From: Candidatus Melainabacteria bacterium
Lineage (GTDB): Bacteria; Cyanobacteriota; Vampirovibrionia; Obscuribacterales; Obscuribacteraceae
Direction: 5' to 3'
NCBI GenBank assembly: GCA_017307165.1
Contig: JAFKGK010000013.1
Span: 14,520 to 78,519 of the forward strand
DNA: 64,000 nucleotides
Shown: one piece after another, positions 11,230-59,200 of the stretch
Layout of the letters: each line of letters starts with the position of its first letter
Numbering within the stretch: position 1 is the first letter of the stretch
Notes under the pieces: generated by a model
Database searches by the model: none
What the model saw: only the letters and a program-made list of their open reading frames with translations
What the model was told of the DNA's origin: nothing
Program-made: the position numbers and the translations under genes

Positions 11230-13140
11230 TGTTAAGAGTATTTTCTGATTGGTTTTGGCCCAGGTGCTCGTGTTAAACGATAAACTCTGCAGCTCAATAA
11301 GGCAGTTTTTGTCTCGAAATAGCTAAAATGCGTCATTCTGAGCATGCGGAAGCTAAGCCTTAACCTGACACTAAGTCTTGTAGAGTAGTTAGAGACTGGA
11401 TTCGCTGAAAGTTTGCAGATTAGAGATTCAACCAGGCCGTTAGAAACTCTCGCTGATATGGTGACTCAGAAGCTAGATGGAGTGCCACTTCTTTGGCCTT
11501 CTCCTTGACCAACACGCCAATTTTCAGAAAGCATAGTCTGAACGTTTCAACCGTCATCATCCTGAGCCTAGCTCGCTTTTGAACAGTTTTGATCAAAATG
11601 TAGGCAAACACGTGTAGGAATAATCGGAACTGGTTTGCCTCAAATTCCTGGCAGCTGGTGCGGCCAGAAGCTAGATAGAGCTTTAGATCTTTAATCCAAT
11701 TTTCGCATTGGGCACGGCTGCAGTACTTGTCTTCGTAGATTTTTCGAGCAGACATGGTTGTTGCATTAGTCACCACAAACCTAGTATCTGGGCCTTTTCT
11801 GCTGACCTCAGCTTTGAATATTACTCTGCGCTCTGATCGCCACTCTCGAGCTCTGTAGCTAAATTCGGCATACTTCTTAACTGAATAGACACTCTCGTGC
11901 ATCTCTTGAACGCGGCCCGCCAACTTAGAACCAAACCTTTTTTTCTCCTCCAATTGTCGCCAAGCAATTTTTCGATCTCCTGGAGATACCATCGTGGCGT
12001 ACTTTTTCAGCGCCGGACTTTCATAACCAAATTCATCAAATTCACGTTTGCATTGAAGAACTGTACTCTCCGCATGATATGCATAACCCGCATGGCCAGC
12101 GGCTGATACAAAGTAAGTGATGCCAGAGTCTTCCAGAAAGTTAAAAAGCTCTGAGCTCGCAAACGCTGCGTCAGCCTTCAATTCGATACGAACATTAGGC
12201 CAAGATAGCCTCAGCTCCCGAAAAAGTTGTTTTAACATTCTAATCGCATCGTCAATAGGGTTGGGGTTTCCCGGCCTCAGTAATGCGCACAGTGGAAACC
12301 CAGATTGATCAAAAATGAACAGCGGAGCATAACAAAACGCTTGATAATAGCCATTGTAGAAGGATAATTGTTGCGTGCCATAAGTTTCATCGCAAGTTGT
12401 GTCCATCGACAAATGTACTACCTTGGGCACTTTCTTAAATTGCTTCACATACAGATGAACAAGCAATCTCTGTAAAGCTGCATTTGTTGTGGCATCTACG
12501 CTGTTTTCAAAACGAGACAAGCTCGGCTGCGATGCTAAATGCTGCCCAGAGTCTGGATTCTGGCCAGCAGCGAGCATGTGCATCGCATCTCTTCTGAGTA
12601 AACCTGCATCGTTGCAATCCTCATATCCAGAGGCTATTGCGTAAATTCTTTGCTGCAGCATCTCAACGATTGAATGCTGAACGTACTCAGGGCGCCGCTT
12701 GTCACCAATGGCGCAAGATGCGAGGCCTGTTAAGCCCAGGCGCTCATCGGCTTTTCGCAAAAGTAGGAGACCGCCATCGCTGCAAACTGAGCCCCCATCA
12801 AAGTTAGCCTTCACTCGCTTTAAACCTGGCAAATCTAGCTGCATTTGGCCTTGCGAACTAAAATTGATCTGTTTAGACTGTGTCATATCAAAAGCCCTTT
12901 CTTTTGCTCTTTCTGGTGTGTGGTAACTTCAGATTCTGAGCCAAATGACAGGGCTTTTGTGCGTTTTTCTAGATTACTTTGGTATCACTCCCATGAATAA
13001 TGCAGGTTAATTCCTTCTGCTACTTCATACAGTATAAATCTGGTTTGTGTTATTTGGCTTGCCTTGGTTACTGGCTAATGATTTGTGATGGAGGCAGACA
13101 GACCAAAAAGGTCAATGAGCAGAGCAAACTAAGAGCTAAT
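11230..13140 (-). mobile_element. IS1380-family insertion sequence (boundaries approximate; terminal inverted repeats not resolved by eye)
   Basis: A low-GC block surrounds the transposase gene, and a sharp compositional transition occurs on both sides. Typical IS1380 elements are about 1.7-2 kb. Confidence 0.35.
11420..12886 (-). CDS. IS1380-family DDE transposase
   Basis: A 488-aa protein. Its N-terminus (FDGGSVCSDGGLLLLRKADERLGLTG) is characteristic of IS1380-family transposases. Its local GC content (about 45%) is far below that of flanking genes. Confidence 0.8.
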   Translation of the reverse strand: MTQSKQINFSSQGQMQLDLPGLKRVKANFDGGSVCSDGGLLLLRKADERLGLTGLASCAIGDKRRPEYVQHSIVEMLQQRIYAIASGYEDCNDAGLLRRDAMHMLAAGQNPDSGQHLASQPSLSRFENSVDATTNAALQRLLVHLYVKQFKKVPKVVHLSMDTTCDETYGTQQLSFYNGYYQAFCYAPLFIFDQSGFPLCALLRPGNPNPIDDAIRMLKQLFRELRLSWPNVRIELKADAAFASSELFNFLEDSGITYFVSAAGHAGYAYHAESTVLQCKREFDEFGYESPALKKYATMVSPGDRKIAWRQLEEKKRFGSKLAGRVQEMHESVYSVKKYAEFSYRAREWRSERRVIFKAEVSRKGPDTRFVVTNATTMSARKIYEDKYCSRAQCENWIKDLKLYLASGRTSCQEFEANQFRLFLHVFAYILIKTVQKRARLRMMTVETFRLCFLKIGVLVKEKAKEVALHLASESPYQREFLTAWLNL

Positions 13141-23925: not shown

Positions 23926-24175
23926 ACCCATCAACCTCATAGAAAGGAGTCCGGCCATGACAGGCATAGGGCAGCACGACCGTATGTAGGTCCTGGTGGG
24001 CGCACTGCTCGTCGCAGTGCAAGAGTGCAGGAGCAAACACCCGCTTGCTCGTCTTCCGTTGAAGCTTTTATAGCTTGCCTCTAGACAATCCCGTCTAGAG
24101 GCGGCTGCCTTACGCCTAAAAAGCCGAGGAAACTGCACTCTCCGCTTGCACCAGGGCCTCCAGATCGGAGGTTTT

Positions 24176-24484
24176 ATGGGCAAGTCTTATCGCGATCGCC
24201 GCGACCACGACGACAACGAGTCGATCGACAACCGTGTCGTCTACATCCACCTCGACGAGATCTACGTTTCCGACGCGACCTGGCACAAGCTGATGACCCG
24301 TGACGGTCAGCAGATTGAGGCCTACCGTCAGGCGTACGAAAACGGCGAGGAGATGGTGCGCGTCGTCCTGCGTCCCCGCTATGACGGCGGGTACAACGTC
24401 GAGGACGGCCGCCACCGCGTCATCGCCGCCAAGCAGGCCGGTGTCGGGCACATCGAGGCCATCATCATCGGCTCCATTGGCTGA
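24176..24484 (+). CDS. Small ParB/sulfiredoxin-like nuclease-domain protein
   Basis: The ATG at 24176 follows ggagg. It has a ParB N-domain-like core (NVEDGRHRVIAAKQAGVGHIEAII). Confidence 0.45.
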   Translation: MGKSYRDRRDHDDNESIDNRVVYIHLDEIYVSDATWHKLMTRDGQQIEAYRQAYENGEEMVRVVLRPRYDGGYNVEDGRHRVIAAKQAGVGHIEAIIIGSIG

Positions 24485-24573: not shown

Positions 24574-25233
24574 ATGAAAATCAAAGCAACTGCACTCCTG
24601 GTAATTGGCGCTCTGGTGGCTCTCGCGCTGGTTCTTGCATCCTGCACGTCGTCCAAGAACGCGCGCTGGCAGGATCTGCCCGGGGACTATCAGCTCACCG
24701 AGCGGGCGGTATTTAAGATCAAAAATGCCTTTGACGTCTCCGACGATCGCGGCAACGACTATGGCAAGGTCTCCGAGGACCTGATCTCCTGGACGAGGAC
24801 TTTTACCTGGTATGACGGCGTCGGCGAAAAGGCCGCATCAGCCAGCGTCGCTCTCGTAAGCTGGGGCACGCGCATCGACGTCCTGGGTGGTGATGGCAAA
24901 AAGGTCGGCACCATCAAGGAAGAGGTCTTGAGCTCGATGTTTAAGACCTGGACCACTTACAAGATCCTCGACGATGCAGGCAACGAGATCGCGACCTCGC
25001 AAAAGGTCGAGTGGCTCGGGACCTCGATCACGCTGACCGGCAACGACGGCAAGACGATCGCAGTGGTGCATCGGCCGGCAATCAACCTCGTGTCTGATAC
25101 CTGGAAAATCTCGGTCAAGGAGACCAATCGCGTCGATTCGCGTGTGCTCGTGATGATCGCGGCATTCAAAACGGCTGTGGACAACGATCGCGAAGCGGCC
25201 GACAAAAAGAAGAAGGACACAGGCAAAAAGTAG
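24574..25233 (+). CDS. Lipoprotein of unknown function
   Basis: It has a signal peptide with a lipobox (LVLASC) and a beta-rich body. Confidence 0.6.
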   Translation: MKIKATALLVIGALVALALVLASCTSSKNARWQDLPGDYQLTERAVFKIKNAFDVSDDRGNDYGKVSEDLISWTRTFTWYDGVGEKAASASVALVSWGTRIDVLGGDGKKVGTIKEEVLSSMFKTWTTYKILDDAGNEIATSQKVEWLGTSITLTGNDGKTIAVVHRPAINLVSDTWKISVKETNRVDSRVLVMIAAFKTAVDNDREAADKKKKDTGKK

Positions 25234-25395
25234 TCTAAGGGTCTGATTTTTTTGGGAGAGGGAAGGGGGAGAAGGAGTGGATGGCTTGCTGCCTCCTTCT
25301 TTCCTTCTCTCTTTCTCAAAAATTTTGCTTTACACTGTTACTTGATATAGTAAGCAAAAGTGGGGCCTAGTTTTGATGTATGAGAGTCTGAGTGC

Positions 25396-25623
25396 TGTTA
25401 GAAATTTGAGAGGTTATGGAGGTTGAAAATGCAGATGGAGACTGAGGGGAATCTATTTTTTTGAAGGGTCGAAAAATTTGTAAAGGCGAAAATTAATTGC
25501 GCTTGACACTGCAAATCCGCTCACTGCAAGCGTTTCAAATTTAATAAAACCCCAAAACCTGCATTTTACATAACTTCACTCATTAATTTTGTGCGAGCAG
25601 AAACAAGACACCGCCTCACTCTC
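25396..25623. repeat. Left copy of an about 228-bp inverted repeat pair
   Basis: It is about 90% identical to the reverse complement of 28632..28859, read directly from the sequence. The shared core reads ...gaagggtcgaaaaatttgtaaag[g/a]cgaaaattaattg[c/t]gcttgacactgcaaa[t/c]ccgctcactgcaa... Confidence 0.85.
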
Positions 25624-25665
25624 CGCGCACATTATTTCTCACGTTTTAGCCGTGACCGTGCCCAT

Positions 25666-27822
25666 TCATTCTTTGAGTTTCCGACTGTAATGCATGGCAA
25701 TTGCATACAAGAGTAGCGCCACTATATTTAGTGCTTTCACTCCAAATGCCATTGATGCATACTCGAGGGCTCCACCGATGAGAGTGCCGAGGAGGTTCAT
25801 GCCGAGAGCCTTGGCGGGATCATTGACTCGCGAGTAGACGATCGCAAAAATCATCGCCGCAAACAAAAGAGGCGACGAAAGGATCATCGAGCCCAGGGCA
25901 ATGCTAGTGAGGGTCGGCAGACCATTGAGAATATTGAGATCAAAGAGGTAGTTACCGATGATCGAGATGAAGAGCAAGGCAAACAGTACGTTGAGGTTTT
26001 TAAATTTGTATTTGATCTGCAGGAGGTTTGCCACCAGAATCATCAGCAAGACGCCCGTCACTACTGCCGAATTGACCAACCACGTGGTGCCAGCCAACAA
26101 GCCCATTTGCGTAACGCTCTTGGTCTCGATCAGCATAAATGCCGCACCGAGAAAAAACATCAAACGCCCGGATGCATCACTGGTAAATGAGCCGAATGCC
26201 TTGCGCACCAGGCCTACGCCCAAGCTGAGAGTAAACAAAAGGCCAAAGGCATAGTTGAAAGTGAGGCCAGGAGTGCGCAAAAACACATACGGCCAATCGT
26301 CTGTCGTCGGATTGACAGCCTTCCATTCGGGCATGTCAAATTTCATCTCTTTGGCTGCCTGGTCCAGATCAAACATCTTGAGACCGCTGTTGCGCACGGC
26401 ATTTGCGTCGAGACCGGGGCCGACTAGCAGAGTCGGACCATTATTGCCTTTGGAGTAGACGCCGATCGGCTCGCCACCATAGCCTTGCTCGACCGAATGA
26501 TAGATGCGCGCCAGCTGCCACCAGGTCAAATAATAAAAGATGACCGACATGACGCCTTTTGGCTTGAGCAGCTGCGATGCGTCGTGAAAGCATTCGCGAG
26601 TGTAGACATAATTGTCGAGTCTGATGGAGGACATCGTCGAAAAAGCGCTGTGGCTGTCGAGATAAGCAAACACAACCAGGTCGTATTTTTTTTGGCAGCG
26701 CCTCAGATAGGCCCGAGCGTCATCCACGATGATGTGGACGCGCGGGTCGGAGTAAGGTTTTTCGGGGTGGATCTCACGGCCGAGTTTTGCGATAGTAGGA
26801 TCGATCTCGACGCAATCGATGTCGGTGGCGCCATGGCGCAGAGCTGCGGCAACGTCATTGCCCGTGCCCGCGGCGAGGACCAGTACGCTGCGTGGAGCAT
26901 CTCCCAGAGCCAGATAAGGCGTATCGTAATAATCGGCCGTGGCTTTGAGCTGCCCAGGTGGGAGTGCGGCGAGCACTTTAGGATCGTTGTTGTAGGCACC
27001 TTCTATGGTGTCATAATTGACGTTGATGTTATAGCCGTATTTAAAGGGCGGGTGGGCGCCTTCTGCAGGCAAGATGGCCTCGGAGAGCGTGATGCGATAG
27101 TAAGGTGACCACATGACGTTGGGCATGCTGAGGCCAAATGCGAGTGCTAAAGAAAGGATGAGCGCGCCGAGCTGGACTGGCTTGCGATAAAAGATCAGCA
27201 TGGGCAAGACGCCGATCAAAAGCCAGATTGGAGGTGTCAAGGACAAAAAGGAGATGCCGGTAAAGAGCAGTATACCGAGGAGGCTTGCAAAAACGTTGAT
27301 GCTGTAGGCTTTTAGGGGCGAAAATTGCTCGAAGAGTTGGCCGATTTTTTGGCCGAGGCCCGCAAATGTGAGGACGAGGATGTAAAAGACACCGACGAGC
27401 ACAATGAGGCCGGAGAGGAAAAAGCGCATCCGGTAAAGGATGTCGGTGTGTTCTTGATTGTCGCCAAAGTTGCCGATGAGGTAGTTTTCGAGTGGGTTGA
27501 TAAAGGTGACGTGTGCGAGATCAAAGACCTGCGAGCCCGATGTGTGGCCGGCGATGCAGATGAGGCCGACGATGACGCATAGCCCGATGGGAAACCATTT
27601 GAAGAGGTCTCGCGGGCTCTTCGATAGCGCCATGCCCAGTCCGAGGCCAAAAAGGCAGGCCATGAGTGGGATGTTTTTGAAATAGGCAAAGATGCGGATC
27701 TCTGATGAGAGCCAGCGTATGATGGCGAGCTCAAAATACAGCGAGGCGGCGCTGATGATCAGGAGCGGCCAGACTGAGGTTTTGGTTTGGGGACTGGTAA
27801 GGTTGTCGGTTTTTTCTTGCAT
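25666..27822 (-). CDS. Polytopic membrane protein with spermidine-synthase-like (aminopropyltransferase fold) domain
   Basis: A 718-aa protein with N-terminal multi-TM segments. Its soluble domain resembles the spermidine-synthase block (VLVLAAGTGNDVAAALRHGATDIDCVEIDPTIAKLGREIHPEKPYSDPRVHIIVDDARAYL..YDLVVFAYLDSHSA). It has further TM segments at the C-terminus. Confidence 0.7.
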   Translation of the reverse strand: MQEKTDNLTSPQTKTSVWPLLIISAASLYFELAIIRWLSSEIRIFAYFKNIPLMACLFGLGLGMALSKSPRDLFKWFPIGLCVIVGLICIAGHTSGSQVFDLAHVTFINPLENYLIGNFGDNQEHTDILYRMRFFLSGLIVLVGVFYILVLTFAGLGQKIGQLFEQFSPLKAYSINVFASLLGILLFTGISFLSLTPPIWLLIGVLPMLIFYRKPVQLGALILSLALAFGLSMPNVMWSPYYRITLSEAILPAEGAHPPFKYGYNINVNYDTIEGAYNNDPKVLAALPPGQLKATADYYDTPYLALGDAPRSVLVLAAGTGNDVAAALRHGATDIDCVEIDPTIAKLGREIHPEKPYSDPRVHIIVDDARAYLRRCQKKYDLVVFAYLDSHSAFSTMSSIRLDNYVYTRECFHDASQLLKPKGVMSVIFYYLTWWQLARIYHSVEQGYGGEPIGVYSKGNNGPTLLVGPGLDANAVRNSGLKMFDLDQAAKEMKFDMPEWKAVNPTTDDWPYVFLRTPGLTFNYAFGLLFTLSLGVGLVRKAFGSFTSDASGRLMFFLGAAFMLIETKSVTQMGLLAGTTWLVNSAVVTGVLLMILVANLLQIKYKFKNLNVLFALLFISIIGNYLFDLNILNGLPTLTSIALGSMILSSPLLFAAMIFAIVYSRVNDPAKALGMNLLGTLIGGALEYASMAFGVKALNIVALLLYAIAMHYSRKLKE

Positions 27823-27933
27823 AACACGTATTAGACCCAGATTTTTGCGTCTATATCCTTCTGATAATGTGTGCTGTTTGTTTTGGGGTGTAGTAAGAAC
27901 GGGTATGCTTAATGAGACTATTGAGGGAAAAAG

Positions 27934-28512
27934 TTGACTTTTTGGACCAAGTTAAGTCAAGACGTTGAGAATAGATACGCCGCTTGCGTTAAAGACCGCG
28001 TACGGCTATACATGACTCGATATCGCAAGGCTCATGATGAAGCTTTGGCTGCATCTTTGCACATCGATGGCGCAAAGGTCTTGGACTTTTCTTACATGAT
28101 CTATTGTCGTGAAACCTGGTATGCCGCTCAAAGCGGAGTAATATTCGAGCTGAGGCCAAAATATGCTGCGGATCGCGATGTTTTCCAAGTCGATGACGTA
28201 TGGAGTGCTTTTATGCACCTAAGAGATGATTCCATTGATGCAGCGCTAACATCGCAGTGCCCTTTAAAACGAGCTTTGTCGATTCTGGATGCTCGCGTGG
28301 GCAAAAGGCGTCTAACAAAAATCAATGTAATCGACGAAACTCAACTAGTGCAGCGCCTCTGGTATTTGCGCTGTAGTTCCGAGGGCATCTCCATTCCCGA
28401 TGATATTAAAGTCAATCTGAGACCTTTAACAGAAAAAATAAGGACTGATTATTACTCAAATCTCTATAAAGCGATGAGCAAGCAAGAAATTGAGAATCAT
28501 ATGATTGTATGA
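27934..28512 (+). CDS. Hypothetical protein (192 aa), divergent partner of the membrane spermidine-synthase-like gene
   Basis: It is an ORF of coding-like composition inside the repeat-bounded cassette. I recognise no family. Confidence 0.4.
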   Translation: MTFWTKLSQDVENRYAACVKDRVRLYMTRYRKAHDEALAASLHIDGAKVLDFSYMIYCRETWYAAQSGVIFELRPKYAADRDVFQVDDVWSAFMHLRDDSIDAALTSQCPLKRALSILDARVGKRRLTKINVIDETQLVQRLWYLRCSSEGISIPDDIKVNLRPLTEKIRTDYYSNLYKAMSKQEIENHMIV

Positions 28513-28631
28513 GGCAACCTAGAAATCAAGTTTTTGATAATTAGCAGTGCTCTGTTGGGGTTTGTTTTTTGTCGAAATATCTAACAGGTGGTTAGATTTT
28601 TGGTGAAAATTTTGGTTGCTGTGGATGAGAT

Positions 28632-28859
28632 GAGAGTGAGTCGGTATCTGCTTTTCGTCCCGACAAAATTAATGAGTGAAGTTTTGTAAAATGCGGGTTT
28701 TGGGGTTTTATTAAATTTGAAACCATTGCAGTGAGCGGGTTTGCAGTGTCAAGCACAATTAATTTTCGTCTTTACAAATTTTTCGACCCTTCAAAAAAAC
28801 AGATCCCCCTCAGTCTCCATCTGCATTTTCAACATCCAAAACCTCTCAAATTTCTAACA
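28632..28859. repeat. Right copy of the about 228-bp inverted repeat pair
   Basis: It is the reverse complement of 25396..25623, read directly from the sequence. Confidence 0.85.
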
Positions 28860-29017
28860 TCACACCCCCCACATTAAGCAAAACCCCAAACCCACTATAC
28901 CATATAACAACTCCTTGCACAAAAAAATCCAACCGGCAGACACAGCCCTTTCACCACCAAAGGCAAAAGAACCGCGTCCACCGGCCAGATATTTTAGAGC
29001 GCAGCGCGCAACATGCT

Positions 29018-30184
29018 TTAGAGCGCAGCCACCACGACCCACAGACGGAAACGCCCGATCAACCGATCGGCCATCCCATAAAACACATCGTAGACGTGCT
29101 CGTCATCATGCGTCGCAAGATCAGCCCGCTCGACGATGCCGGTGGGAAACACGACATTGTTGACGATGCCTTCCAGCTCATCGCGCGTCTCAGGCTTGAT
29201 AGCCGGCTCCGGCGAGACGTATTTGATGCGATGCGGCTCATCGCCGTCATGCAGCATCACGCCGCCAGCATAGCGCCCCTGGTATCCCGAAGGCCGCGTC
29301 GCCGACGCAAACTGATCGACACCATGAAAGATCTCGAGCAGATTGCCCGCGAGCAAGCCACGCGTGATCTTGACCGGAGCAGTGCCCGCGCCGCACTTAA
29401 AAGTCCCCCAGGCATCGAGCGGCGCAAAGACCAGCTCCGACTCGGTCACCTTGAGGATATTGGCAAAGTCAGCGCGCACAGCGTACAGAGGGATGTACGC
29501 AATGCGGATGCACTGCCGATCGGTGGGCGCCGCAGCCAGAGTCGACTGCACCACGTCCATGCCATCGCGAGCCGGGATATTGGTCATCGGCCGATGGTAA
29601 AGCGCCAGCGACACTTCGCCGGAGGGCGACATCACCGGCTCCGGAAAAAATGCCGCGTCCTTGTCATCGGGATGCAACCCAAAGGTCTCGGGGATATCCA
29701 GAAGCCCCAGACGGTGCCACTTGTATCCGTCCTGCGACCAGGCGAGCGCGATGCGAGGACCGGCCAGACCAAAGGCGGTGTAGCACATCATGTACCGATC
29801 GAGCTCGGCGATAAAGGTCACGCGAGGGTCTTCGCAGCCTTCACCGCCGATGGTGACGCTCTTGCCCGACTCGTCGATGCGGCGACGACGCTCGTAAGCG
29901 GCCTGCGGCACGAGGGCAAAGCCGACGCGCTCATAGGGAGCTTCGTTGCCATCAGCGTCGACGACGGGCTTGCCGTCGGCCCAGAGCTGACGGATCATTT
30001 CGAGACGCGACTGGTTGCCGTGGGCGACCGAGCGCATCATGACGATGAGGTGGCCGTCGCGATCATGGTAGACGGCGGGGTTGAGCACGCCTTCGACCTG
30101 ATAAGGACCGACAGGCGAGGCGACGATGCCGAGGCGCTCGACGCGAGTGGTGATCTTGACGGCAGAGGTGAGGTTGTTTTCCAT
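29018..30184 (-). CDS. GH130-like / DUF377 beta-propeller glycosidase-phosphorylase family protein
   Basis: It has GVLNPAV..DG..LIVMMRSVA and GEGCEDPRVT blocks typical of GH130/GH43-like five-bladed propellers. The start was chosen at MENNL (30184), which is M28 of the track ORF. Confidence 0.5.
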   Translation of the reverse strand: MENNLTSAVKITTRVERLGIVASPVGPYQVEGVLNPAVYHDRDGHLIVMMRSVAHGNQSRLEMIRQLWADGKPVVDADGNEAPYERVGFALVPQAAYERRRRIDESGKSVTIGGEGCEDPRVTFIAELDRYMMCYTAFGLAGPRIALAWSQDGYKWHRLGLLDIPETFGLHPDDKDAAFFPEPVMSPSGEVSLALYHRPMTNIPARDGMDVVQSTLAAAPTDRQCIRIAYIPLYAVRADFANILKVTESELVFAPLDAWGTFKCGAGTAPVKITRGLLAGNLLEIFHGVDQFASATRPSGYQGRYAGGVMLHDGDEPHRIKYVSPEPAIKPETRDELEGIVNNVVFPTGIVERADLATHDDEHVYDVFYGMADRLIGRFRLWVVVAAL

Positions 30185-30944
30185 TTCAATTGTCCTGCAA
30201 ACTTGTTGGAGAGCAGACCAATAGTCATAACCACCTTGCCAAATGGACTGGCGGAGGCTGGACATGACTATTGGACCGGGGGTGAGGTTGATGGTAGAAA
30301 AAATTTCTGGGATGTCTAGATAATAAATTTGCTCTCTATAAAATCACTGCTTTTTGTTAAAGGGATGATTTAAACCTACCTGTGCAGGCGTGCCTTTCCA
30401 AATCTTGCCGACCTTGAGTTCGTCCCACTGCCATAATTGCGCTAATCTGCAAAATGCCCAGAGGGAGGGCATCTATGCATGGAGAAATACCCGGGTGCAA
30501 ATGCAGGGCAGCAGATTATGAGAGGCAACTCAAAAGGACATGGTTGCGCGACCTTCGCTAGCACTGGCATAGGCTCAGTTTTATTAGCCATGGCTCAGTA
30601 AACCCGCAAAGCCAACAATCACGTCAACTTGCATGGCTGGCGCACATAACGGTTCTTTACAAGCCTCCTCAAAGGCACCCTTATAAAACGCCTGATTGGC
30701 TAGTTTGTTTCTACATCCTTCCTTTTCACTGTCCACGAGCAAATCCCGCCTAGTTTTCACCCAACTCCACCACTGCATCTTTATCGCAAATTTTTCCCTC
30801 GGCCCCACCGTTGGAAAAAGCACGCGAATCAGATGGCAGCAAAGGATCGATTCGATCTTGTGGTGTCAGCTAGCGATAAGCTCGTGCGTGCGTCGAATGG
30901 ATATGGATGGTTTAACAACCGCTCAAATCGAAAGTAGATCAAAC

Positions 30945-37295: not shown

Positions 37296-38170
37296 GGCTC
37301 TGTTGCAAAAATTTTTGGACACGAAATACGGTTACCTTTCCGTCGGCAGTGCCTCATATAGTGAGTGCCAGAACTCACGAGATGCCTCGTCGTCTTCGAT
37401 TCCGAAAACCTTTTCTACCAGGTAGACTTCTCCTTTGACTCCTGGGAAGCGCTGCCAGGCGCGAAGCTGGCCCTTTCGAAACATCCGCATGACCTCAAAT
37501 CCCTTAATGGTCGCATACGCTGTTTTCATCGTTTTAAATCCTCGCACCGGATAAATCAGACGCTTGAGCTTGCCATGATCGGCTTCCAGACCGTTATTCA
37601 AGTATTTGACTTGTCGATGCAGTATGTTCGGGTCGCACTTACCGGCAAGTTTCATTTCCTTGAGAGCCACACCGTATGAAGGGTTCTTGTCTGTATTGAT
37701 TGTGTGTGGGCTATCGGCCAACTTCATTTTTCGAATGGCTTTGCTAAGAAAACGCTTTGCCATAGCCGTGCTTCGAGTGGGCGACAAGAAGAAATCAATT
37801 GTGTCTCCGTCTTTGGATATCGCTCGATACAGGTATTTCCAGTCCCCGCCCACCTTGATGTATGTCTCGTCAACGTGCCAGGTGCCGCTAATTGCTGGGC
37901 GATAGCGCCAACGCAGCCGCTTTTCGAGTTCCGGTCCATAGTGTTGCACCCACCGGTATATTGTGGTGTGGTCAACTTCGATGCCTCGCTCTCGCATTAT
38001 TTCTTCGAGGTCTCGGTAGCTGAGACCGTACTTGCAGTACCAGCGAACACATTGCAAAATGGTCTCGCCTTTGAAGTGCCGCCATTTAAAATCGCTCATG
38101 CTTCCTCCTTTCAATGAGACTGGATGCCCGGGCGGGGTATTATTTCGCAGAATGGTAGATATGCGAAGTT
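37296..38170 (-). mobile_element. IS6-family element; one terminal IR identified, other end not found
   Basis: An IS26-like terminal repeat (ggctctgttgcaaa) sits at 37296..37309, 22 bp past the transposase stop. No matching inverted copy was found upstream of the transposase start. The element may therefore be 5'-truncated or rearranged against the adjacent integrase remnant. Confidence 0.5.
37332..38099 (-). CDS. IS6-family (IS26/IS257-like) transposase
   Basis: MSDFKWRHFKGETILQCVRWYCKYGLSYRDLEEIMRERGIEVDHTTIYRWVQHY..DETYIKV..KTMKTAYATIKGFEVMRMFRKGQ is collinear with IS26 Tnp26. Confidence 0.85.
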   Translation of the reverse strand: MSDFKWRHFKGETILQCVRWYCKYGLSYRDLEEIMRERGIEVDHTTIYRWVQHYGPELEKRLRWRYRPAISGTWHVDETYIKVGGDWKYLYRAISKDGDTIDFFLSPTRSTAMAKRFLSKAIRKMKLADSPHTINTDKNPSYGVALKEMKLAGKCDPNILHRQVKYLNNGLEADHGKLKRLIYPVRGFKTMKTAYATIKGFEVMRMFRKGQLRAWQRFPGVKGEVYLVEKVFGIEDDEASREFWHSLYEALPTER

Positions 38171-38191
38171 AAATCGCCGAAAGAAGGGTTA

Positions 38192-38868
38192 ATGCCTGCG
38201 CGCGCATCTAAAAAACCGGCCAGTTTCGCACCATCAAAAGGAAATGCGAAATCGGAGGCCGTCAAGAAAATTCTTCGTATCGCCAGGCAGCACCGCCTGG
38301 GCTATGACGATTTTGTGCAAGTCTGCCAACAAGTCCGGATCAAATTGAATTTGAGAAAGCCCAAGAAAGAGCGGCGGCTTCCAGAGCTGTTGCCGCCGGC
38401 AGAGCTAAAGAAATTTTTCAAAGCGGTCCAGAAGTGCGGCGATTTGCAGCACGAACTGATGCTCAAGCTGCTGTTATACACTGCCGTGCGAGTCAGCGAG
38501 TTAGTCAATATCCGTGTGAGCGATCTGGACCTAGAAGCCTGCAAGATCTTCATCGACAGCGGGAAGGGAAACAAAGACCGATATATTCTTTTTCCAGCGA
38601 GTTTCCGACTAGCACTGAAAAGCTTTGTGGAAGCCCGGCCGCAGAATGTATCTCTTCGAGTCTCGTTTGAATCAACCCTACACTACCAGGCGTATTCAGC
38701 AAATAGTGCGGCTTTACACCGATGAAGCCGGTCTTGAGCTCTGATTCCAAGCTCCAGCTCATTTCCGGCCATGAAAGCCGCAAGAGCTTGGAGTTGTATC
38801 AGCACTTATCGCTTGAATCTGTTGAAGCCGAATATCAGCAAGCAGTCCGACTTTTGGATGTCTAGAAG
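38192..38868 (+). pseudogene. Tyrosine recombinase/integrase remnant (frameshifted, internal deletion)
   Basis: The N-terminal part (LLLYTAVRVSELVNIRVSDLDLEACKIFIDSGKGNKDRYILFP) is the integrase catalytic-domain start. The frame breaks near 38680 (RRIQQIVRLYTDEAGLEL* in frame +1). The C-terminal block (LQLISGHESRKSLELYQHLSLESVEAEYQQAVRLLDV*) lies in a third frame. The H-x-x-R segment between them is missing. Confidence 0.55.
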
Positions 38869-38878
38869 CAAGCTGCTC

Positions 38879-39946
38879 TCACCGAGTTTCATACCAAGCT
38901 TTGCTTGAATTCACGATTTTGACGACCGACAACATAACCGGCACTTCGATCAGAACACCCACAACAGTGGCCAGGGCGGCGCCGGAATTGAAGCCAAATA
39001 GGCTTATGGCCGTGGCTACCGCCAACTCGAAGAAGTTGCTGGCGCCGATCAATGCGGACGGGCAAGCTACGGAGTGCGCGACGCCGAGGCGCTTGTTTAG
39101 CAGGTATGCAAGGGCCGAATTGAAATAGACCTGAATCAGGATCGGTACAGCCAGGATGGCGATGACCATGGGCTGCCTGATGATAGCGTCACCCTGGAAG
39201 CCAAACAATAAAACCAGCGTCGTTAACAGTGCAAGCAACGACAGCGGATGCAATTTGTCTAGCACGCCTTCCAGCGCTTGAGGACCGGCTTTGAGCAAAG
39301 CACCGCGCCACAGTTGTGACAGCAAGACCGGTACAACGATATAGAGTCCCACCGAAATTAAGAGAGTTTCCCATGGCACAGTTATTGATGAAAGCCCCAG
39401 AAGAAGCCCGACTATGGGCGCAAACGCAAAGACCATGATGAGGTCATTTACTGCAACCTGGCTGAGCGTAAAGTATGGATCGCCTTTTGTTAGTTGACTC
39501 CAGACAAACACCATAGCGGTACAGGGAGCCGCTGCCAGGATGATCAGACCAGCTATGTAGCTATCAATTTGTGCGGCTGGTAGGTACGGTGCAAAGACAT
39601 GTTTGATGAAAATGAAGCCTAAGAAAGCCATGGAGAATGGCTTAATAGCCCAGTTTATAAAGAGTGTCACGCCCATTCCGCGCCAATGTTGTTTCACCTG
39701 GTCGATTGCTTTGAAGTCAATTTTCAAAAGCATCGGGATAATCATGACCCAGATGAGAAGCCCCACGGGCAGGTTAACGCGGGCGATCTCCATCGCACCA
39801 ATCGCTTTGAAAACTCCAGGCATTAGCTGACCAAGAAGGACACCGGCACCAATGCACAGGAACACCCACAACGTAAGCCACCGCTCGAAAAAGCCTATGC
39901 TCGGCTCGTTGTCGGTTAGTTTTGGAGTCGCTATCTGGGAAGTCAT
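38879..39946 (-). CDS. acr3: Arsenite efflux permease, ACR3 family
   Basis: A 355-aa protein whose N-terminal block (FFERWLTLWVFLCIGAGVLLG) is ACR3-typical. It has about 10 TM segments. Confidence 0.85.
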   Translation of the reverse strand: MTSQIATPKLTDNEPSIGFFERWLTLWVFLCIGAGVLLGQLMPGVFKAIGAMEIARVNLPVGLLIWVMIIPMLLKIDFKAIDQVKQHWRGMGVTLFINWAIKPFSMAFLGFIFIKHVFAPYLPAAQIDSYIAGLIILAAAPCTAMVFVWSQLTKGDPYFTLSQVAVNDLIMVFAFAPIVGLLLGLSSITVPWETLLISVGLYIVVPVLLSQLWRGALLKAGPQALEGVLDKLHPLSLLALLTTLVLLFGFQGDAIIRQPMVIAILAVPILIQVYFNSALAYLLNKRLGVAHSVACPSALIGASNFFELAVATAISLFGFNSGAALATVVGVLIEVPVMLSVVKIVNSSKAWYETR

Positions 39947-39948
39947 TT

Positions 39949-40368
39949 TTACACCTGCACTGGATCAGCACAGCAGTTTGTCGCGTTCAAGCCCTGTAGA
40001 AGCTTGAGCACGCGCGTTCTTATCTCGTCTCGGATTTGGCACACTTCATCGTCAGACTTGCCTTTTGGATCTGGCAAAGGCCAATCATCGCGCTTCAGAC
40101 CGGGCACAAAGGGACAGGCTTCGCCACATCCCATGGTTACAAGTAGGTCGGCGCCGGCCGCTAGTTCGTCTGTCAGAAGCTGGGGCCTAACGTTTGCCAA
40201 GTCGATCCCGGCTTGTTTCATGGCATGCAGAACACAGTCATGAACTTTGTCGGCCGGTTGCGTTCCGGCTGACACTGCCTGAGCTTTTGCCGGGTCGGCA
40301 AACTGATTGAAAAAGGCGGCCGCCATCTGTGAGCGTCCTGCATTGTGTACGCAGGCGAATATTACTTT
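39949..40368 (-). CDS. arsC: Arsenate reductase, LMW-PTP (thioredoxin-coupled) type, with extra C-terminal CC tail
   Basis: It has a CX5R P-loop (CVHNAGRSQMA) and a GCGEACP region, and ends ..NATNCCADPVQV. The start MKVIF at 40368 overlaps the upstream stop (ATGA). Confidence 0.8.
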   Translation of the reverse strand, partial: KVIFACVHNAGRSQMAAAFFNQFADPAKAQAVSAGTQPADKVHDCVLHAMKQAGIDLANVRPQLLTDELAAGADLLVTMGCGEACPFVPGLKRDDWPLPDPKGKSDDEVCQIRDEIRTRVLKLLQGLNATNCCADPVQV

Positions 40369-40838
40369 CATCTGCTGCATTCCTTCTTGCCTATGCTGAC
40401 CGGCACCGCTTCCGGCATTGGAGCGCAGCAAGCCGAGTTGGTTTGTGTTGTAAAATCGGCGTCTTCGCCATAGGTTGTGGCGCTATCGGTCGTGTAGAAG
40501 CTTTCCCAGGCAATGCCTTGAGGATCGTGTACCCACGCTTTATCCGCTTTGGCGTAACAGCAAGTAGTTTGTTCTTGCTCAAGAATTGGCTGTTGAGCCT
40601 GTTTGAGTCGTACTGAAATTTCCTTGAGCGCTTCGCCGTCGTCAACTTGAATGCCCAAATGGTCGAGCCCTGGCTCTCTTCCGCGAGTAGAGATGGCAAA
40701 GTTTATGCGAGGATCATCAAGCATCCATTTGGCATAGTCTTCCTTCTTGACGGTTGGCGGCACATCAAAAAAGGTTGAGTAGAACTGTATCGACTGCTCT
40801 AAGTCAGCCACTGCAACATGAACATGGAACCTTTTCAT
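40368..40838 (-). CDS. VOC/glyoxalase-fold protein, ArsI/CadI-like (vicinal cysteine pair)
   Basis: MKRFHVHVAVADLEQSIQFYSTFF and TTCCYAKADKAWVHDPQGIAWESFYT resemble the ArsI C-As lyase As(III)-binding region. It has a second CC (NSACCAPMPE) near the C-terminus. Confidence 0.6.
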   Translation of the reverse strand: MKRFHVHVAVADLEQSIQFYSTFFDVPPTVKKEDYAKWMLDDPRINFAISTRGREPGLDHLGIQVDDGEALKEISVRLKQAQQPILEQEQTTCCYAKADKAWVHDPQGIAWESFYTTDSATTYGEDADFTTQTNSACCAPMPEAVPVSIGKKECSR

Positions 40839-41191
40839 TAACACTTTCCTCCATTGTCGGCACAACAGTTTTCCATCAAGAACCCGAGTAGCTCTTGCAT
40901 GTGACCGTAATTTGCCGCGTATATAATTGACCGGCTCTCGCGCCTGGATGCTATCAAACCTGCATTACTCAGCTCTTTTAGGTGGAATGACATAGTTGCC
41001 GGTGGCATTGAGAAATGATCGCTCAATTCCCCAGCAGCCATACCGGTTGCACCTTTGCGGACCAATAGCCTGAAGATATCCAAGCGTGATTCTTGCGCTA
41101 AAGCCCCAAGGGCCTTAACTGCGTCGTTTGTTTTCATATTTCCAGAATAATCGAAGGGTTGCGATAAGTCAAGCCTCCAGAATTTTTGCAA
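40838..41191 (-). CDS. arsR: ArsR/SmtB-family repressor with C-terminal CC-x6-C arsenite site
   Basis: It has a wHTH (LAQESRLDIFRLLVRKGATGMAAGELSDHF) and ends ENCCADNGGKC, like C-terminal-site (AfArsR-type) ArsR. The start is ambiguous: TTG at 41191 or ATG at 41137. Confidence 0.75.
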   Translation of the reverse strand: MQKFWRLDLSQPFDYSGNMKTNDAVKALGALAQESRLDIFRLLVRKGATGMAAGELSDHFSMPPATMSFHLKELSNAGLIASRRESRSIIYAANYGHMQELLGFLMENCCADNGGKC

Positions 41192-41197
41192 CAGAGC

Positions 41198-41503
41198 CTA
41201 TTTTTGAGTGCCCAGATCCGCATACATAAGCAACCCACCTTTTTTGATGACTCTCTTAGTGCGTCTGTCCACCGCACTCATAATTGATTTAACATTGTCG
41301 CAACGAAGTTCTATTGGCGCATTCTTCGCGAGTTTAACCTGCCTGATTTCACTACCATTTATTTCATGACCTAGAGCTAAATCCTGAGTAGCTTGAGTAC
41401 CCATGTAATCCCAGTCAATTTCTTCATGCGAAGTTAGATAAAATCCGATGATTGTTAAACCAAGGCAAACTCCACCAATAATTAGCAATCTACCGGGTTT
41501 CAT
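41198..41503 (-). CDS. Small single-TM protein of unknown function
   Basis: A 101-aa protein (MKPGRLLIIGGVCLGLTIIGFYL...) immediately upstream of arsR on the same strand. Confidence 0.35.
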   Translation of the reverse strand: MKPGRLLIIGGVCLGLTIIGFYLTSHEEIDWDYMGTQATQDLALGHEINGSEIRQVKLAKNAPIELRCDNVKSIMSAVDRRTKRVIKKGGLLMYADLGTQK

Positions 41504-41585
41504 TACTGCTACCTCTACCCTCATAATCTACAAACTAAGATTAGCTTTTCAAAAAAACAATACGTAACTCACGGACAGTTTTATC

Positions 41586-42082
41586 TGCGCGAGCAGACAT
41601 AGAAGGGAGGGCAGTTCATTTTCTTGCTCGCAACTATGTACGACACCTTGCCGATTACATCTAAGAAAGCAGGCACAGAAGGGAGGGCAGTTCATTTTCT
41701 TGCTCGCGTCTACGCACACCACCTTGCCGATTTCATCTAAGAGGGCAGGCATAGAAGGGAGGGCAGATCATTTTCTCGCTTGCGTTAACGCACACCACCT
41801 TGCCGATTACATCTGAGAGGGCAGGCATAGAGGGGAGGGCAAATGTTTTTCTTGCTTGCGTCAACGCACACCACCTTGCCGATTACATCTAAGAGAGCAG
41901 GCATAGAAGGGAGGGCAGTTGATTTTCTCGCTTGCGTCAACGCACACCACCTTGCCGATTACATCTGAGAGGGCAGGCATAGAAGGGAGGGCAGTTGATT
42001 TTCTCGCTTGCGGCAGCGCACACCACCTTGCCGATTACATCTAAGAGAGCAGGCATAGAAAGGAGGGCAGTTGCTTTTCTGC
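41586..42082. repeat. Tandem repeat array, 76-bp unit x about 6.5 copies
   Basis: The anchor gattacatct recurs at 41653, 41729, 41805, 41881, 41957 and 42033, an exact 76-bp period. Units are about 90-95% identical, with the consensus gcaggcatagaagggagggcagttgattttctcgcttgcgtcaacgcacaccaccttgccgattacatctaagaga. There are no unique spacers. The period is not a multiple of 3. Confidence 0.9.
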
Positions 42083-42309
42083 TATCTCTGCACTCATATG
42101 CGATTCTCTGTTCGCAATAAAGCCAAAGCCAGTGCGATCTCAGCCCTATCTCTGCTCTATGCATTTAAGCCGCAGATGAATGCATTGGGGGTTGAGCGGC
42201 CCTTTGCGTCAGCACCGGGGCCGCGATCCCTCAATACATTCATCACCCCAGCTAAAAGACTCTAGACAAAGATAGTCTGCTAGATACGAGATGGCTCTTT
42301 AATGCGAGA

Positions 42310-54763: not shown

Positions 54764-55524
54764 TCGGCTAGGCCGATTAGGCAATGAGAGGGTGCAGGTC
54801 GAAAGATCTGACACTCTCTCATTTTGGTTTTGCATACTGCGTTTTATAGTATAACTGGATTTAGTTTGGTGGAAATGTAGAAATGGTTGGCAGGCAGGAC
54901 ATATTGCCGGCCACTGGTGCTGCGCAATGCGGCCTACACAATTTGCCTCACCTGCCTACACTCACTAAATGACCGACAATTTCCACCATGCAAATCTTCT
55001 CAACAACTAAAAACTCAGTGCAAGCAGTTTACAAGCAGCACATTTAATTTAGCCACTTCACAACCAAATGAACAATACAACGACCGCACAATGGCACTTC
55101 AAGCATTACCACCCACTCAAACAACAATTACGAAAAAATGAATCTCCTCCTTGAGATTGATTGCGCATGGCGTGGAATATATGTATCATGTGATCTAGTT
55201 ATTGAGAATGATTGTCACACCAATCGCTCAGCAGAGGAAATTGTGGATATGAAAAACGAAAGAGCCGCAAGCCAATTTCTCGGATTTCTCGCGCCGACTG
55301 GTCGGATTATCCTTATGCCGCACTCGACTCGCTCAGGCCAGTCCCCTCAGAGAGCTGCCAGCGAGCTGGATGAGATGAGCGAGGCCGCCAATCAAAAAGA
55401 GATCAATGTCATAGAAATGCCCGTAGCGGGACTTTTTGAGTCGACAAAAAATCGCAAGAGCGCTCATGAGAGCCACACTCCCACCTAATCGCACACTAAA
55501 GCGCATCCATTTGACCAGCCCGCC

Positions 55525-55962: not shown

Positions 55963-55978
55963 CCAACGAGAAATGTCA

Positions 55979-56133
55979 TAAAAGAGATGTTCTCATTGCC
56001 TGATCCCAGAGAGAAAGAGAGAGAAATGGCATAACAGAGATGTTCTCATTGCCTGATCTCAGAGAGAAAGAGAGAGAAATGGCCTGACAGATATCTGCTC
56101 TTATTGCCTGATCTCAGAGTAAGTAATAAATGC
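55979..56133. repeat. Direct repeats, about 53-bp unit x 2.8
   Basis: agagatgttctcattgcctgatc[c/t]cagagagaaagagagagaaatggc occurs at 55979-56029 and 56033-56083, with a degenerate third copy to 56133. Confidence 0.8.
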
Positions 56134-56264
56134 AATAACGGATGATGGCAATTAGTGTAGGCCGCTTTGCGCAGCACCGGCGGCCGGCTAATTGCCTCAT
56201 CCGTTATCCATAACTACTCTAAAGAGATCACGGCATAGCAGCCTCATCCGTTATCCATAACTAC
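56131..56264. repeat. Nested inverted repeat / hairpin plus a 23-bp direct repeat
   Basis: gcaataacggatgatggcaattag (56131-56154) is inverted relative to ctaattgcctcatccgttatcc (56186-56207). The GC-rich spacer carries an inner ggccgc..gcggcc stem. cctcatccgttatccataactac is repeated at 56242-56264. Confidence 0.75.
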
Positions 56265-56282
56265 CCAAATGAGATCACGACA

Positions 56283-57248
56283 TCAGATGTACTGATCCAA
56301 TTCTCGCCTCGTGATATCCACAAAATAAGCAAACACACTCATTGCAAGCTTATCGACACTATCCAGTTCGCTCGGCAGAGACTGCGCCCGACCGCAGACC
56401 CTCGCCGCCTGCTGATCAAATAAGGCACTGCGATCGTCGACCATCCATTCGGCACACCCCGATCTAATGCGCACATTGATCGATAGTATCGGCCTAAACT
56501 GATCCTCGCTCACGCTCAGCGCCATCGCCTTATCCACAGGCATGACATAAAACTCGAGCTTATTGATGCCACCACGTAGCATCAGCGTATACAGCGAATT
56601 AGAAAGTCTGGCCCTAAAATAAGTAACCGTCTCTTCCGCTTCTCTATTTTTATTGATCGTAATTACCTCTGCCACCTCACCCATGATCGAGCTTGAGATC
56701 TGCAGGCCAGTCCCTTGAGCCACCTTGTTGAGCTCAAAGGCATAATGCTTGAGATGACGAAACAACTGATCGACCAGATAACAAACCGCTGACTTAAACA
56801 AACTATCCTGCAGCTCTCTTTCCGCATCCTCATCCCGACGGCTCTGGATAAAATGCTCGGATTGAGCCTTTAGATCATCCATCCACGACTGCACGTCATC
56901 TGACACTCCAATACCAAAATCACTCAAATGCTTATCCGAAAGCTCGGCATGCGCGATCATCCCAGCAAGTGAGCTACTGTCTTTTATCGCACGCGACTCT
57001 CCAAACTCACCAGCAGCACCCGCCGTCAGGTCATGCCCAAACATCGAACGATCCAGCTGCCGCGGCAAACCCTGTTGCATGGCCGGATGCATATCGACAA
57101 ACTTACGCAATTGCTCGCGCCCCAGAGGTTTGGGCCTATCCGCGCCGCCACGCATACTACCTGATTGCGACTGACCTTTAAGCATAATCACCTCTTTCGT
57201 GCCGATATCTCGATTGTGCTCTCTGGAGCGAGTACCGTCATCGACCAA
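56283..57248 (-). CDS. Hypothetical protein (about 320 aa)
   Basis: It is an ORF of coding-like composition. I recognise no family. The start is uncertain: 57248 or an internal M at 57186. Confidence 0.4.
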
Positions 57249-58058: not shown

Positions 58059-58862
58059 ATGGCAGAGCTAGCTCGTAAAATACACCCATTGGTACCAGTG
58101 GCAAAGGCAGCCAGATTATTGCGCCTCGACGAAAACCTCCTGATATCGCGCATTTCGCGTGGAGTTATAGCAGGAGAGTGTCGGCGCATCGATAGCACCT
58201 CCAGTGATACTACCAAACCTGGCTCTCGCAAAAAGCGTAGCACCACCACTGGTTACCAAGAGCAGTGGTTTATCCACGCCGACGAGTTTGACCGCTTGCT
58301 AGACGACAAGTTGGCAAACCTGGAGGAGCGAGTCACCACTTCGGGGATGGATGATTTTTTCACCACCAATTTTGACGCCACACCCACCTATGATTTTGCA
58401 CCGCCTAGACAATACCCAGAGATGAGTTTTGTCCCCGGGCACGACGAGTCGGTCGACACTCACCCGCACCGGATTGCGACCGACAGAGCACGCGATCACG
58501 TACATATCAGCGAGTCAGACCTGAGGCCCTCCGACAGCTCGGACGACCACCAGGCCATCGATGCCGAGATGGACGCGCAGTGCGCAACCAAGTCCCAGAC
58601 GACATCCGCTCAGGAGTTTGTTGCCACCACTTTCAATACCGAGCTCTCCAAGACGATCGGTACCGCCATCGCAGCCGAGATCATAGGCATGCTGAGCCAG
58701 GAGGTCGAGCGCAACCAGACGCTGCACGACCGCATCGACTCACTCGAGCGCGAGATCGTCGCCCTCAAGACCGAGCTGTATTACCAGGTCGATAGCAAGC
58801 CTACTGTGGTGTCCCGAGTAGGCGGCTATTTTGCGCGTATGTTTGGCTTAAAGGTGAAGTAG
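58059..58862 (+). CDS. Hypothetical acidic protein (267 aa)
   Basis: It is an ORF of coding-like composition. I recognise no family. Its last about 10 nt overlap the 3' end of rnpB on the other strand. Confidence 0.4.
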   Translation: MAELARKIHPLVPVAKAARLLRLDENLLISRISRGVIAGECRRIDSTSSDTTKPGSRKKRSTTTGYQEQWFIHADEFDRLLDDKLANLEERVTTSGMDDFFTTNFDATPTYDFAPPRQYPEMSFVPGHDESVDTHPHRIATDRARDHVHISESDLRPSDSSDDHQAIDAEMDAQCATKSQTTSAQEFVATTFNTELSKTIGTAIAAEIIGMLSQEVERNQTLHDRIDSLEREIVALKTELYYQVDSKPTVVSRVGGYFARMFGLKVK

Positions 58863-59200
58863 CGTATAAGCCGGGTTCTGTATTTGACCGTCATCTATCT
58901 GGGAGAGCGATCTCTCGCCCCCTCTAGCGGCATCGGCAGAACGAGACGACGGGCAGCCGCTTACTCGATCTATACCTTCGCCTTGCACCTTTAGCGGGGT
59001 TTACCTAGCCAGAGCCTCTCGACTCTGCTGGTGCGCTCTTACCGCACCGTTGCACCCTTGCCTGCTTGCGCAGGCGGTCATCATTTCTGTGGCACTATCC
59101 TCACGCTCACGCGCACTGGGCATTACCCAGCAACCAGCCCTGCGGTGCCCGGACTTTCCTCATTGGCAAGCCAACGCGACAGTCTGCGCTACTTCAGCCC
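58850..59200 (-). ncRNA. rnpB: RNase P RNA (bacterial type A)
   Basis: Three universally conserved motifs are present on the minus strand: GGAAAGUCCGGGC (complement of 59148-59160), GGGUGCAACGGUGCGGUAAGAGCGCACC, and ACAGAACCCGGCUUAU (complement of 58866-58881). The 5' GAAGUAGCG and 3' CGCUACUUC ends pair as helix P1. A TATAAT -10 box sits about 7 nt upstream of the 5' end (complement of 59203-59208). Confidence 0.85.

Follow-up and report, generated by a model that had tools for sequence, protein, structure and literature searches.

Invertons such as fimS, the Hin/Gin systems and those of Bacteroides combine inverted repeats of about 10-40 bp with a dedicated site-specific recombinase, and the genes they control lie outside the flipped segment. 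Mobile insertion cassettes (MIC/MICE) and cassettes flanked by miniature inverted-repeat transposable elements (MITEs) carry passenger genes between inverted repeats with no internal transposase; the known cassettes have short ends of the insertion sequence (IS) type and target duplications and occur on several replicons. The qnrS2 cassette of Aeromonas plasmids, for example, is bracketed by 22-bp inverted repeats (PMC5444012). Inversions with replicative or staggered breaks can also leave inverted duplications at their breakpoints; in intramolecular replicative transposition of IS26/IS6 elements, for example, the DNA in between is turned round and ends up between two copies in opposite orientation (PMC7986276; see also PMC4471558). 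Here we compare with these systems a locus in a 64,000-nt stretch (the window) of contig JAFKGK010000013.1 from a Candidatus Melainabacteria bacterium of the Obscuribacterales, an uncultured non-photosynthetic relative of the cyanobacteria, in which two divergently transcribed genes, one for a 718-aa polytopic membrane protein and the other for a 192-aa SF0329-family protein, are bounded by inverted copies of a 232-nt non-coding sequence. The repeat is real but ordinary in kind, and nothing shows movement, flipping or regulation. The reading that we favor, tentatively and at somewhat less than an even chance, is that of an inverted duplication confined to this locus, now fixed and decaying, which a single ancient event of rearrangement or insertion left behind.

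A repeat search places the two arms at 25392-25623 and 28632-28863 (232 nt each, 91% complementary, with 3008 nt between them), and a MAFFT alignment of the arms agrees with this result. In blastn comparisons within the window the arms matched each other at an E-value of 4.6e-90, and no third match appeared below E 0.1. A first-pass annotation of this DNA had given the arms as 25396-25623 and 28632-28859 (228 bp, 90% identity), which was essentially right and needs only this refinement; its remark that they are far longer than ordinary IS terminal repeats also holds, and they bracket exactly the two-gene unit. The similarity ends at the arm boundaries (shuffle p 0.17 on the outer side and 0.82 on the inner), the outer edge being sharp and the inner one degenerate. 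The 22 mismatches between the arms are divided equally into 11 transitions and 11 transversions and, counted from the outer end, 12 of them fall in positions 1-201 (94% identity) and 10 in positions 202-232, with dinucleotide swaps in these last 31 positions that resemble compensating 1-nt indels. Perfect runs of arm-arm match do not exceed 30 nt. Within the left arm there is a direct sub-repeat, TTGCAGTG-N7-TTGCAGTG, at 25507-25529 on the minus strand, with its twin in the right arm at 28726-28748 on the plus strand, and other internal sub-repeats recur at 15-19-nt spacing.

No third copy of the arm was found by a whole-window repeat scan and blastn in the window and its extra flanks, nor was any copy found in 182 kb of related Obscuribacterales loci, and blastn with the arm returned nothing from PLSDB and INPHARED. 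The JGI, GTDB and IMG/VR collections were scanned with single exact words of 20-29 nt, which many 90%-identical copies would escape. A 20-mer common to both arms recovered three JGI metagenome contigs, all covering the same right-arm locus, plus one 24-nt chance match; the word scan of 185,579 GTDB representative genomes gave zero hits, as did the scan of IMG/VR with three arm words. The dispersed high-copy repeat that the first-pass annotation had named as one case that would reduce the feature to a generic repetitive element was thus not seen in the collections searched, this being a weak test in that it relied largely on exact words and included no complete genome of this organism.

The arms are non-coding. 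No open reading frame (ORF) is conserved between them in any of the six frames, which contain stops or show mostly non-synonymous arm-arm differences, so that each arm at 232 nt is as small and non-coding as a MITE should be. In other respects they do not behave as a MITE pair, an origin that had been suggested earlier and is not supported, because the arms have no terminal repeats of their own, no target duplication and no further copies in the data searched. Within a single arm the best pair that involves an end measures only 12 nt (83%) and does not reach the inner terminus, and neither direct nor inverted target duplications (k = 4-9, allowing for boundary wiggle) occur around the arms or around the whole 3.47-kb unit, whose outer flanks read GAGTCTGA and ACCCCCCA. 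Likewise, no autonomous element with the same ends came to light: in the window the 18-nt tip matches nowhere else even with 3 mismatches allowed, and the collections scanned gave no hit either. A template/variable repeat pair of a diversity-generating retroelement was also sought, and the neighborhood offered no reverse transcriptase gene and the arms no adenine-specific bias, the mismatches being distributed over all bases.

The orientation of the segment is invariant in the contigs available to us, which come from 13 metagenome samples and represent the same strain or strains 98.5-99.9% identical to it; the species is abundant in samples ERZ1079238, ERZ27250192, SRR35802150 and JGI 3300072015. 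All contigs spanning the left junction (7/7) and all those spanning the right junction (9/9) have the reference orientation, with the proviso that these are consensus assemblies in which minority forms are invisible. The earlier proposal of an invertible cassette accordingly finds no support, either in these contigs or in the arms, which are 9% diverged with short perfect blocks and therefore give no sign of concerted evolution or homogenization. Logan contigs recurrently end at 28692/3, within the right arm, and both strain types present end about 30 nt past the last single-nucleotide polymorphism that distinguishes them. With Logan unitigs built at k=31, these breaks fit the merging of two co-occurring strains, and their interpretation as inversion junctions was rejected.

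The gene pair itself is not a conserved module. The nearest homologues, from Candidatus Obscuribacter and other metagenome-assembled Melainabacteria genomes, are 77% identical for the 718-aa protein and 72% identical for the GH130-family protein encoded beyond the right arm. Loci with homologues of the 718-aa protein were compared in five related species, at 77% identity (L007/L008, L009 and L010/L011) or 65% identity (L031/L032 and L033), and both the SF0329 gene and the repeat are absent from all of them; moreover, the context of the 718-aa gene differs in every relative examined. The first-pass annotation's notion of an obligate small partner is refuted by these five loci, and the finding that the membrane spermidine-synthase-like protein of the Obscuribacterales has no fixed small partner is a negative result useful in itself. 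A small divergent gene beside the 65% homologue in L031 was also compared and proved not to be a relative of SF0329. In two of the three 77% species (L007/L008 and L010/L011) the 718-aa gene is divergently paired with a gene for a GT87 (PF09594) glycosyltransferase, which hints at a role for this protein family in cell-envelope glycoconjugates. A protein-pattern scan of GTDB genomes with the GH130 protein found no relative, and its 72% identical relatives share no synteny with the locus. As the relatives share no synteny, no empty-site comparison can be made and the ancestral state is not reconstructable from the available data.

The favored reading supposes that about 230 bp of AT-rich non-coding DNA was duplicated in inverted orientation at one locus, so that the arms would mark the ends of a 3.0-kb segment that, a single time in the ancestry of this Obscuribacterales species, was inserted or inverted here. 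A segmental inversion or insertion is one candidate for this event, if its breakpoints were staggered or replicative and breakpoint sequence was thereby copied in inverted form. Afterwards the copies would have drifted apart, by 6% in the core and far more in the inner 30 nt, to give a structure that is probably now fixed and passive, and that RecA could in principle flip, though only poorly. We infer both the single origin by rearrangement or insertion and the lack of a present function. The locus is similar to inversion-breakpoint duplications in having two inverted copies around a short chromosomal segment, no direct target duplication and a single location. It differs from the outcome of IS26/IS6 inversion in that the copies are 232-bp non-coding sequences rather than IS elements, inverted 8-bp target copies are absent and the ancestral arrangement is not in the data. 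A local rearrangement or insertion also fits the different contexts of the 718-aa gene in relatives and the composition of the SF0329 gene. With a G+C content of 43.5% and a third-position G+C content (GC3) of 0.43, where the flanking genes have 0.73-0.84, the latter gives the impression of an accessory gene that is foreign or arrived recently.

Several points weigh against this reading. There is no outgroup with an empty or un-inverted arrangement, since the nearest relatives stand at only about 70-77% protein identity and lack synteny, and the rearrangement is thus inferred rather than seen because the ancestral arrangement is absent from the data. The two-copy count depends on exact words that would miss many 90%-identical copies, in collections with no complete genome of this organism. 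Further, the uneven divergence of the arms, with 12 mismatches in 201 positions and 10 in the remaining 31, is unexpected for a simple neutral duplicate and could mean constraint on the core or gene conversion. As it stands, the locus adds one more example, from an uncultured lineage without a close outgroup, of a short chromosomal segment enclosed by an inverted duplication, and it matters little except as a marker of past rearrangement and a warning to those who assemble genomes. Should additional copies, an empty site or both orientations be seen in a closed genome or long reads, it would become either a new long-ended cargo element or a case of RecA-dependent flipping of a complete gene pair.

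The alternative that survives best, though we consider it unlikely, is that the 3.47-kb unit goes back to a non-autonomous cargo element that has since decayed, a mobile insertion cassette with long and possibly IS6-derived ends, which would have been mobilized by a transposase acting in trans and would have brought its two genes in between the LOR-like and GH130 genes that now flank it. The unit has the general form of such an element, with inverted repeats at both ends, passenger genes between them and no transposase or recombinase gene inside (as judged from ORFs and Pfam), and both the sharp outer and degenerate inner edges of the repeat and the foreign composition of the SF0329 gene are consistent with it. 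The arms, however, are far longer than the short IS-type ends of the known cassettes, there is no target duplication, whether of 8 bp or any other length from 4 to 9 bp, direct or inverted, and no second occurrence or autonomous partner came to light in the collections searched. Identity of about 94% over 200 nt resembles a duplication, whereas functional ends conserve binding sites only. The 718-aa protein, moreover, is as close to its relatives (77%) as the flanking GH130 protein is to its own (72%), and so does not look imported.

The window holds a positive control for such an origin 8.4 kb from the repeat, in the form of a 3.9-kb IS6-family cargo transposon (37296-41198). This element has near-perfect 19-nt terminal repeats, GGCTCTGTTGCAAAAATT(T/C), at 37296-37314 (plus strand) and 41180-41198 (minus strand) and is flanked on each side by the 8-bp direct target duplication TATTTTTG; it encodes an IS240/IS6 DDE transposase (37332-38114, minus strand) and an integrase fragment (38192-38725). 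It resembles the repeat-bounded cassette in its size, its carriage of passengers and a CTGTT..AAA core shared with the outer tips of the arms, but its 19-nt ends, 8-bp duplication and own transposase have no counterpart there. Its four passengers are reminiscent of an ars operon, comprising SBF/Acr3-like, LMWPc/ArsC-like and glyoxalase-fold proteins and an ArsR-type helix-turn-helix regulator. Only one member of the IS6 family with a passenger gene is on record (PMC7986276), and an IS6 "tIS" with several passenger genes, as seen here in a Melainabacteria relative, may merit a study of its own.

At their outer tips the arms have the sequences CTGTTAGAAATT (left) and ATGTTAGAAATT (right), which are in the correct, inward orientation when set against the IS6-type ends GGCTCTGTTGCAAAAATT. 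Within them CTGTTAGAAA and ATGTTAGAAA weakly resemble the IS6 end core CTGTTGCAAA (shuffle p 0.03-0.15), a further point against a plain duplication that favors a transposon origin. Conserved cTGTt and caaa motifs are described at the ends of IS6-family elements (Varani et al., PMC7986276), and the same source records two IS6-derived MITE lengths, 227 bp and 336 bp (PMC7986276). The similarity is nonetheless marginal and was spotted post hoc, and the tips lack the GG dinucleotide; we take it as a lead only, not as evidence. A more specific version of the cargo-element explanation, in which the unit would be an undescribed element of Melainabacteria or Obscuribacterales with ends of about 230 bp that are distantly IS6-derived, mobilized in trans by the transposase 8.4 kb away, appears quite improbable; if true, it would extend IS6 biology to long-ended passenger cassettes.

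It is also conceivable, if rather improbable, that the arm core has a function as a non-coding module and is retained twice for that reason; it might bind proteins as an array, act as an outward antisense promoter or give rise to a small RNA, and would serve the convergent gene junctions in which the arms lie. The concentration of mismatches in the inner 31 nt, which leaves the core at 94% identity, would suit a constrained module, as would the internal sub-repeats at 15-19-nt spacing and the retention of the TTGCAGTG-N7-TTGCAGTG arrangement in both arms. There is in addition a weak outward match in the left arm to a promoter of the form TTTACA-N18-AAAAAT, and the right arm is 100% identical across five strains at 99.6% identity (L012, L013, L015, L016 and L030). 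However, promoter-like matches in the region are at chance level (4 found against 4.5 expected), neither strand of the arm folds better than its shuffles (z -0.7 and -1.1), and no terminator-like site occurs inside the arms. A search of the whole window against Rfam 15 at the gathering threshold returned only RNase P, and the left arm gave nothing credible at E<=5; duplicated terminators or small RNA modules, as the first-pass annotation had envisaged, are thus not supported by the fold, the absence of in-arm terminators or Rfam. Nothing similar to the arms was present in the relatives examined. Two copies, in strains that differ by only 0.4%, give no statistical power to reveal constraint in the arms.

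The weakest explanation, an active RecA-mediated inversion of the cassette as a population-level switch, which was the leading idea of the first-pass annotation, is highly improbable, for although the arms are inverted, 232 nt long and matched perfectly in blocks of up to 30 nt, above the minimum of roughly 25 bp for RecA recombination in E. coli, every spanning contig is in the reference orientation, the arms are not homogenized, the breaks at 28692/3 are explained by a mixture of strains, recombinase genes are absent for about 9 kb around, and an inversion that carries complete genes along with their promoter would switch nothing. The seven ORFs at 21.9-33.1 kb are without a recombinase domain, and the nearest recombinase-type gene is the integrase fragment in the IS6-type transposon. 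Like invertons, the locus has inverted repeats around a segment with a promoter region, but short repeats, a dedicated recombinase and external target genes do not apply to it. An inverton has its promoter inside and the regulated gene outside, whereas here both genes are internal and the outer genes converge on the arms; as a flip would move both genes together with their predicted promoter, no obvious effect on expression is to be expected. The consensus assemblies are compatible with rare RecA-mediated inversion, and nothing suggests a switch.

The right arm and its surroundings show some variation among strains. The non-coding stretch after the SF0329 gene (28519-28692), which takes in 61 nt at the inner end of the right arm, stands out as a place of high local divergence: two co-occurring strain types (for example, L019 versus L017, L018 and L020) differ there at about 7% of positions, whereas the adjacent coding DNA differs by only about 0.4%; none of these changes is toward the left-arm sequence. 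A poly-C tract at 28865-28870 that abuts the outer edge of the right arm has six residues in the window and seven in L012, L013, L015, L016 and L030, and this difference could be either slipped-strand length variation or a homopolymer error.

Of the two genes inside the repeat, that for the 718-aa protein occupies 25666-27822 on the minus strand. The protein matches the spermidine-synthase family at the level of the domain (PF01564, residues 309-426, 40.2 bits against a cutoff of 22.9, 3.3e-10), and this central spermidine-synthase-like or class-I methyltransferase domain (approximately residues 300-430) is flanked by hydropathy peaks at residues 17-233 and 575-709. Its scores against the NCBIfam SpeE equivalogs PRK03612, PRK00811 and TIGR00417 (42.9, 42.2 and 39.1 bits) are well below the respective cutoffs (472, 260 and 249.55), and its motif I reads AAGTGND, where that of SpeE is GGGDG. 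On these sub-cutoff scores and the divergent motif, the fold could equally serve a methyltransferase; PADLOC reports a weak match to a methyltransferase domain (mad2). The GC3 of the gene (0.66) is inside the range of the window, and its homologues are likewise slightly under their local G+C content. A low-G+C island comprising the whole cassette was considered and rejected for the 718-aa gene on account of this normal GC3, and low G+C is valid for the SF0329 gene only.

The SF0329 gene (27934-28512, plus strand) is separated from its divergent neighbor by 111 bp (27823-27933), a predicted divergent promoter region that lies wholly within the repeat-bounded segment and agrees, by ORF coordinates, with the shared region of about 110 bp reported earlier. 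Its product passes the curated cutoffs of the SF0329 family (PF25753, 89.9 bits against 27; NF049912, 83.9 bits against 60), and since the Pfam model aligns from residue 4, the TTG start codon at 27934 is supported. The protein had been described as an orphan, which is not strictly so in view of this family membership, but it does hold that there is no close relative outside its own species: in a search of 5.8 billion sequences only its own cluster was matched, and among 1.84 billion representative proteins, with 436 representative clusters at E<=1e-3, the next-nearest are 36-40% identical. Searches for SF0329 in the PDB by sequence and in PADLOC were empty, and the literature search found nothing relevant; a single-sequence AlphaFold model had a predicted local distance difference test (pLDDT) score of 35, which is too low to use.

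From the stop codons of the 718-aa and 192-aa ORFs it is 42 nt and 119 nt, respectively, to the inner end of the adjacent arm. The placement of each arm 3' of one of the divergent genes, as first reported, is correct, to which it must be added that each is also 3' of an outer gene. Both arms sit in convergent intergenic gaps because the LOR-like gene on the left (plus strand) and the GH130 gene on the right (minus strand) also end toward them; the left arm, which is about 38% G+C, lies between the converging 3' ends of the LOR-like and 718-aa genes and the right arm between those of the SF0329 and GH130 genes, and neither arm is assigned a strand. The LOR-like gene (24574-25233; 219 aa, PF04525) is intact, as is that for the GH130-family glycoside phosphorylase-like protein (29018-30265), whose tblastn alignments to relatives extend to residue 410-414 of 415. 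After the LOR-like gene, outside the repeat, there is a long GA/CT-rich hairpin of terminator-like appearance (25244-25325, plus strand) with only generic hairpin matches in Rfam. Upstream of the LOR-like gene a 112-aa ORF (24146-24484, plus strand) has a DGRHR-type motif reminiscent of ParB/sulfiredoxin-like nuclease domains, with no Pfam match at E<=0.01.

Elsewhere in the window, a DDE_Tnp_1_4 (IS4-type) transposase gene (11420-12886, minus strand) is situated in a low-G+C island at 11-13.5 kb, and an inverted-repeat search nearby revealed nothing bearing on the repeat described here. About 300 nt past the right end of the IS6-type transposon, between ORFs, is a non-coding tandem array (41507-42114) of 6.4-8 copies of a 76-nt unit with about 90% identity, which has no Rfam match at the gathering threshold. 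Two short tandem repeats, with units of 53 nt (2.8 copies) and 47 nt (1.9 copies), are found in 55968-56283, and an inverted repeat pair at 54877-54947 and 56147-56217 (71 nt, 73%) spans the same region. The RNase P match is a full-length bacterial class A RNA at 58851-59196 on the minus strand, with a score of 256 bits.

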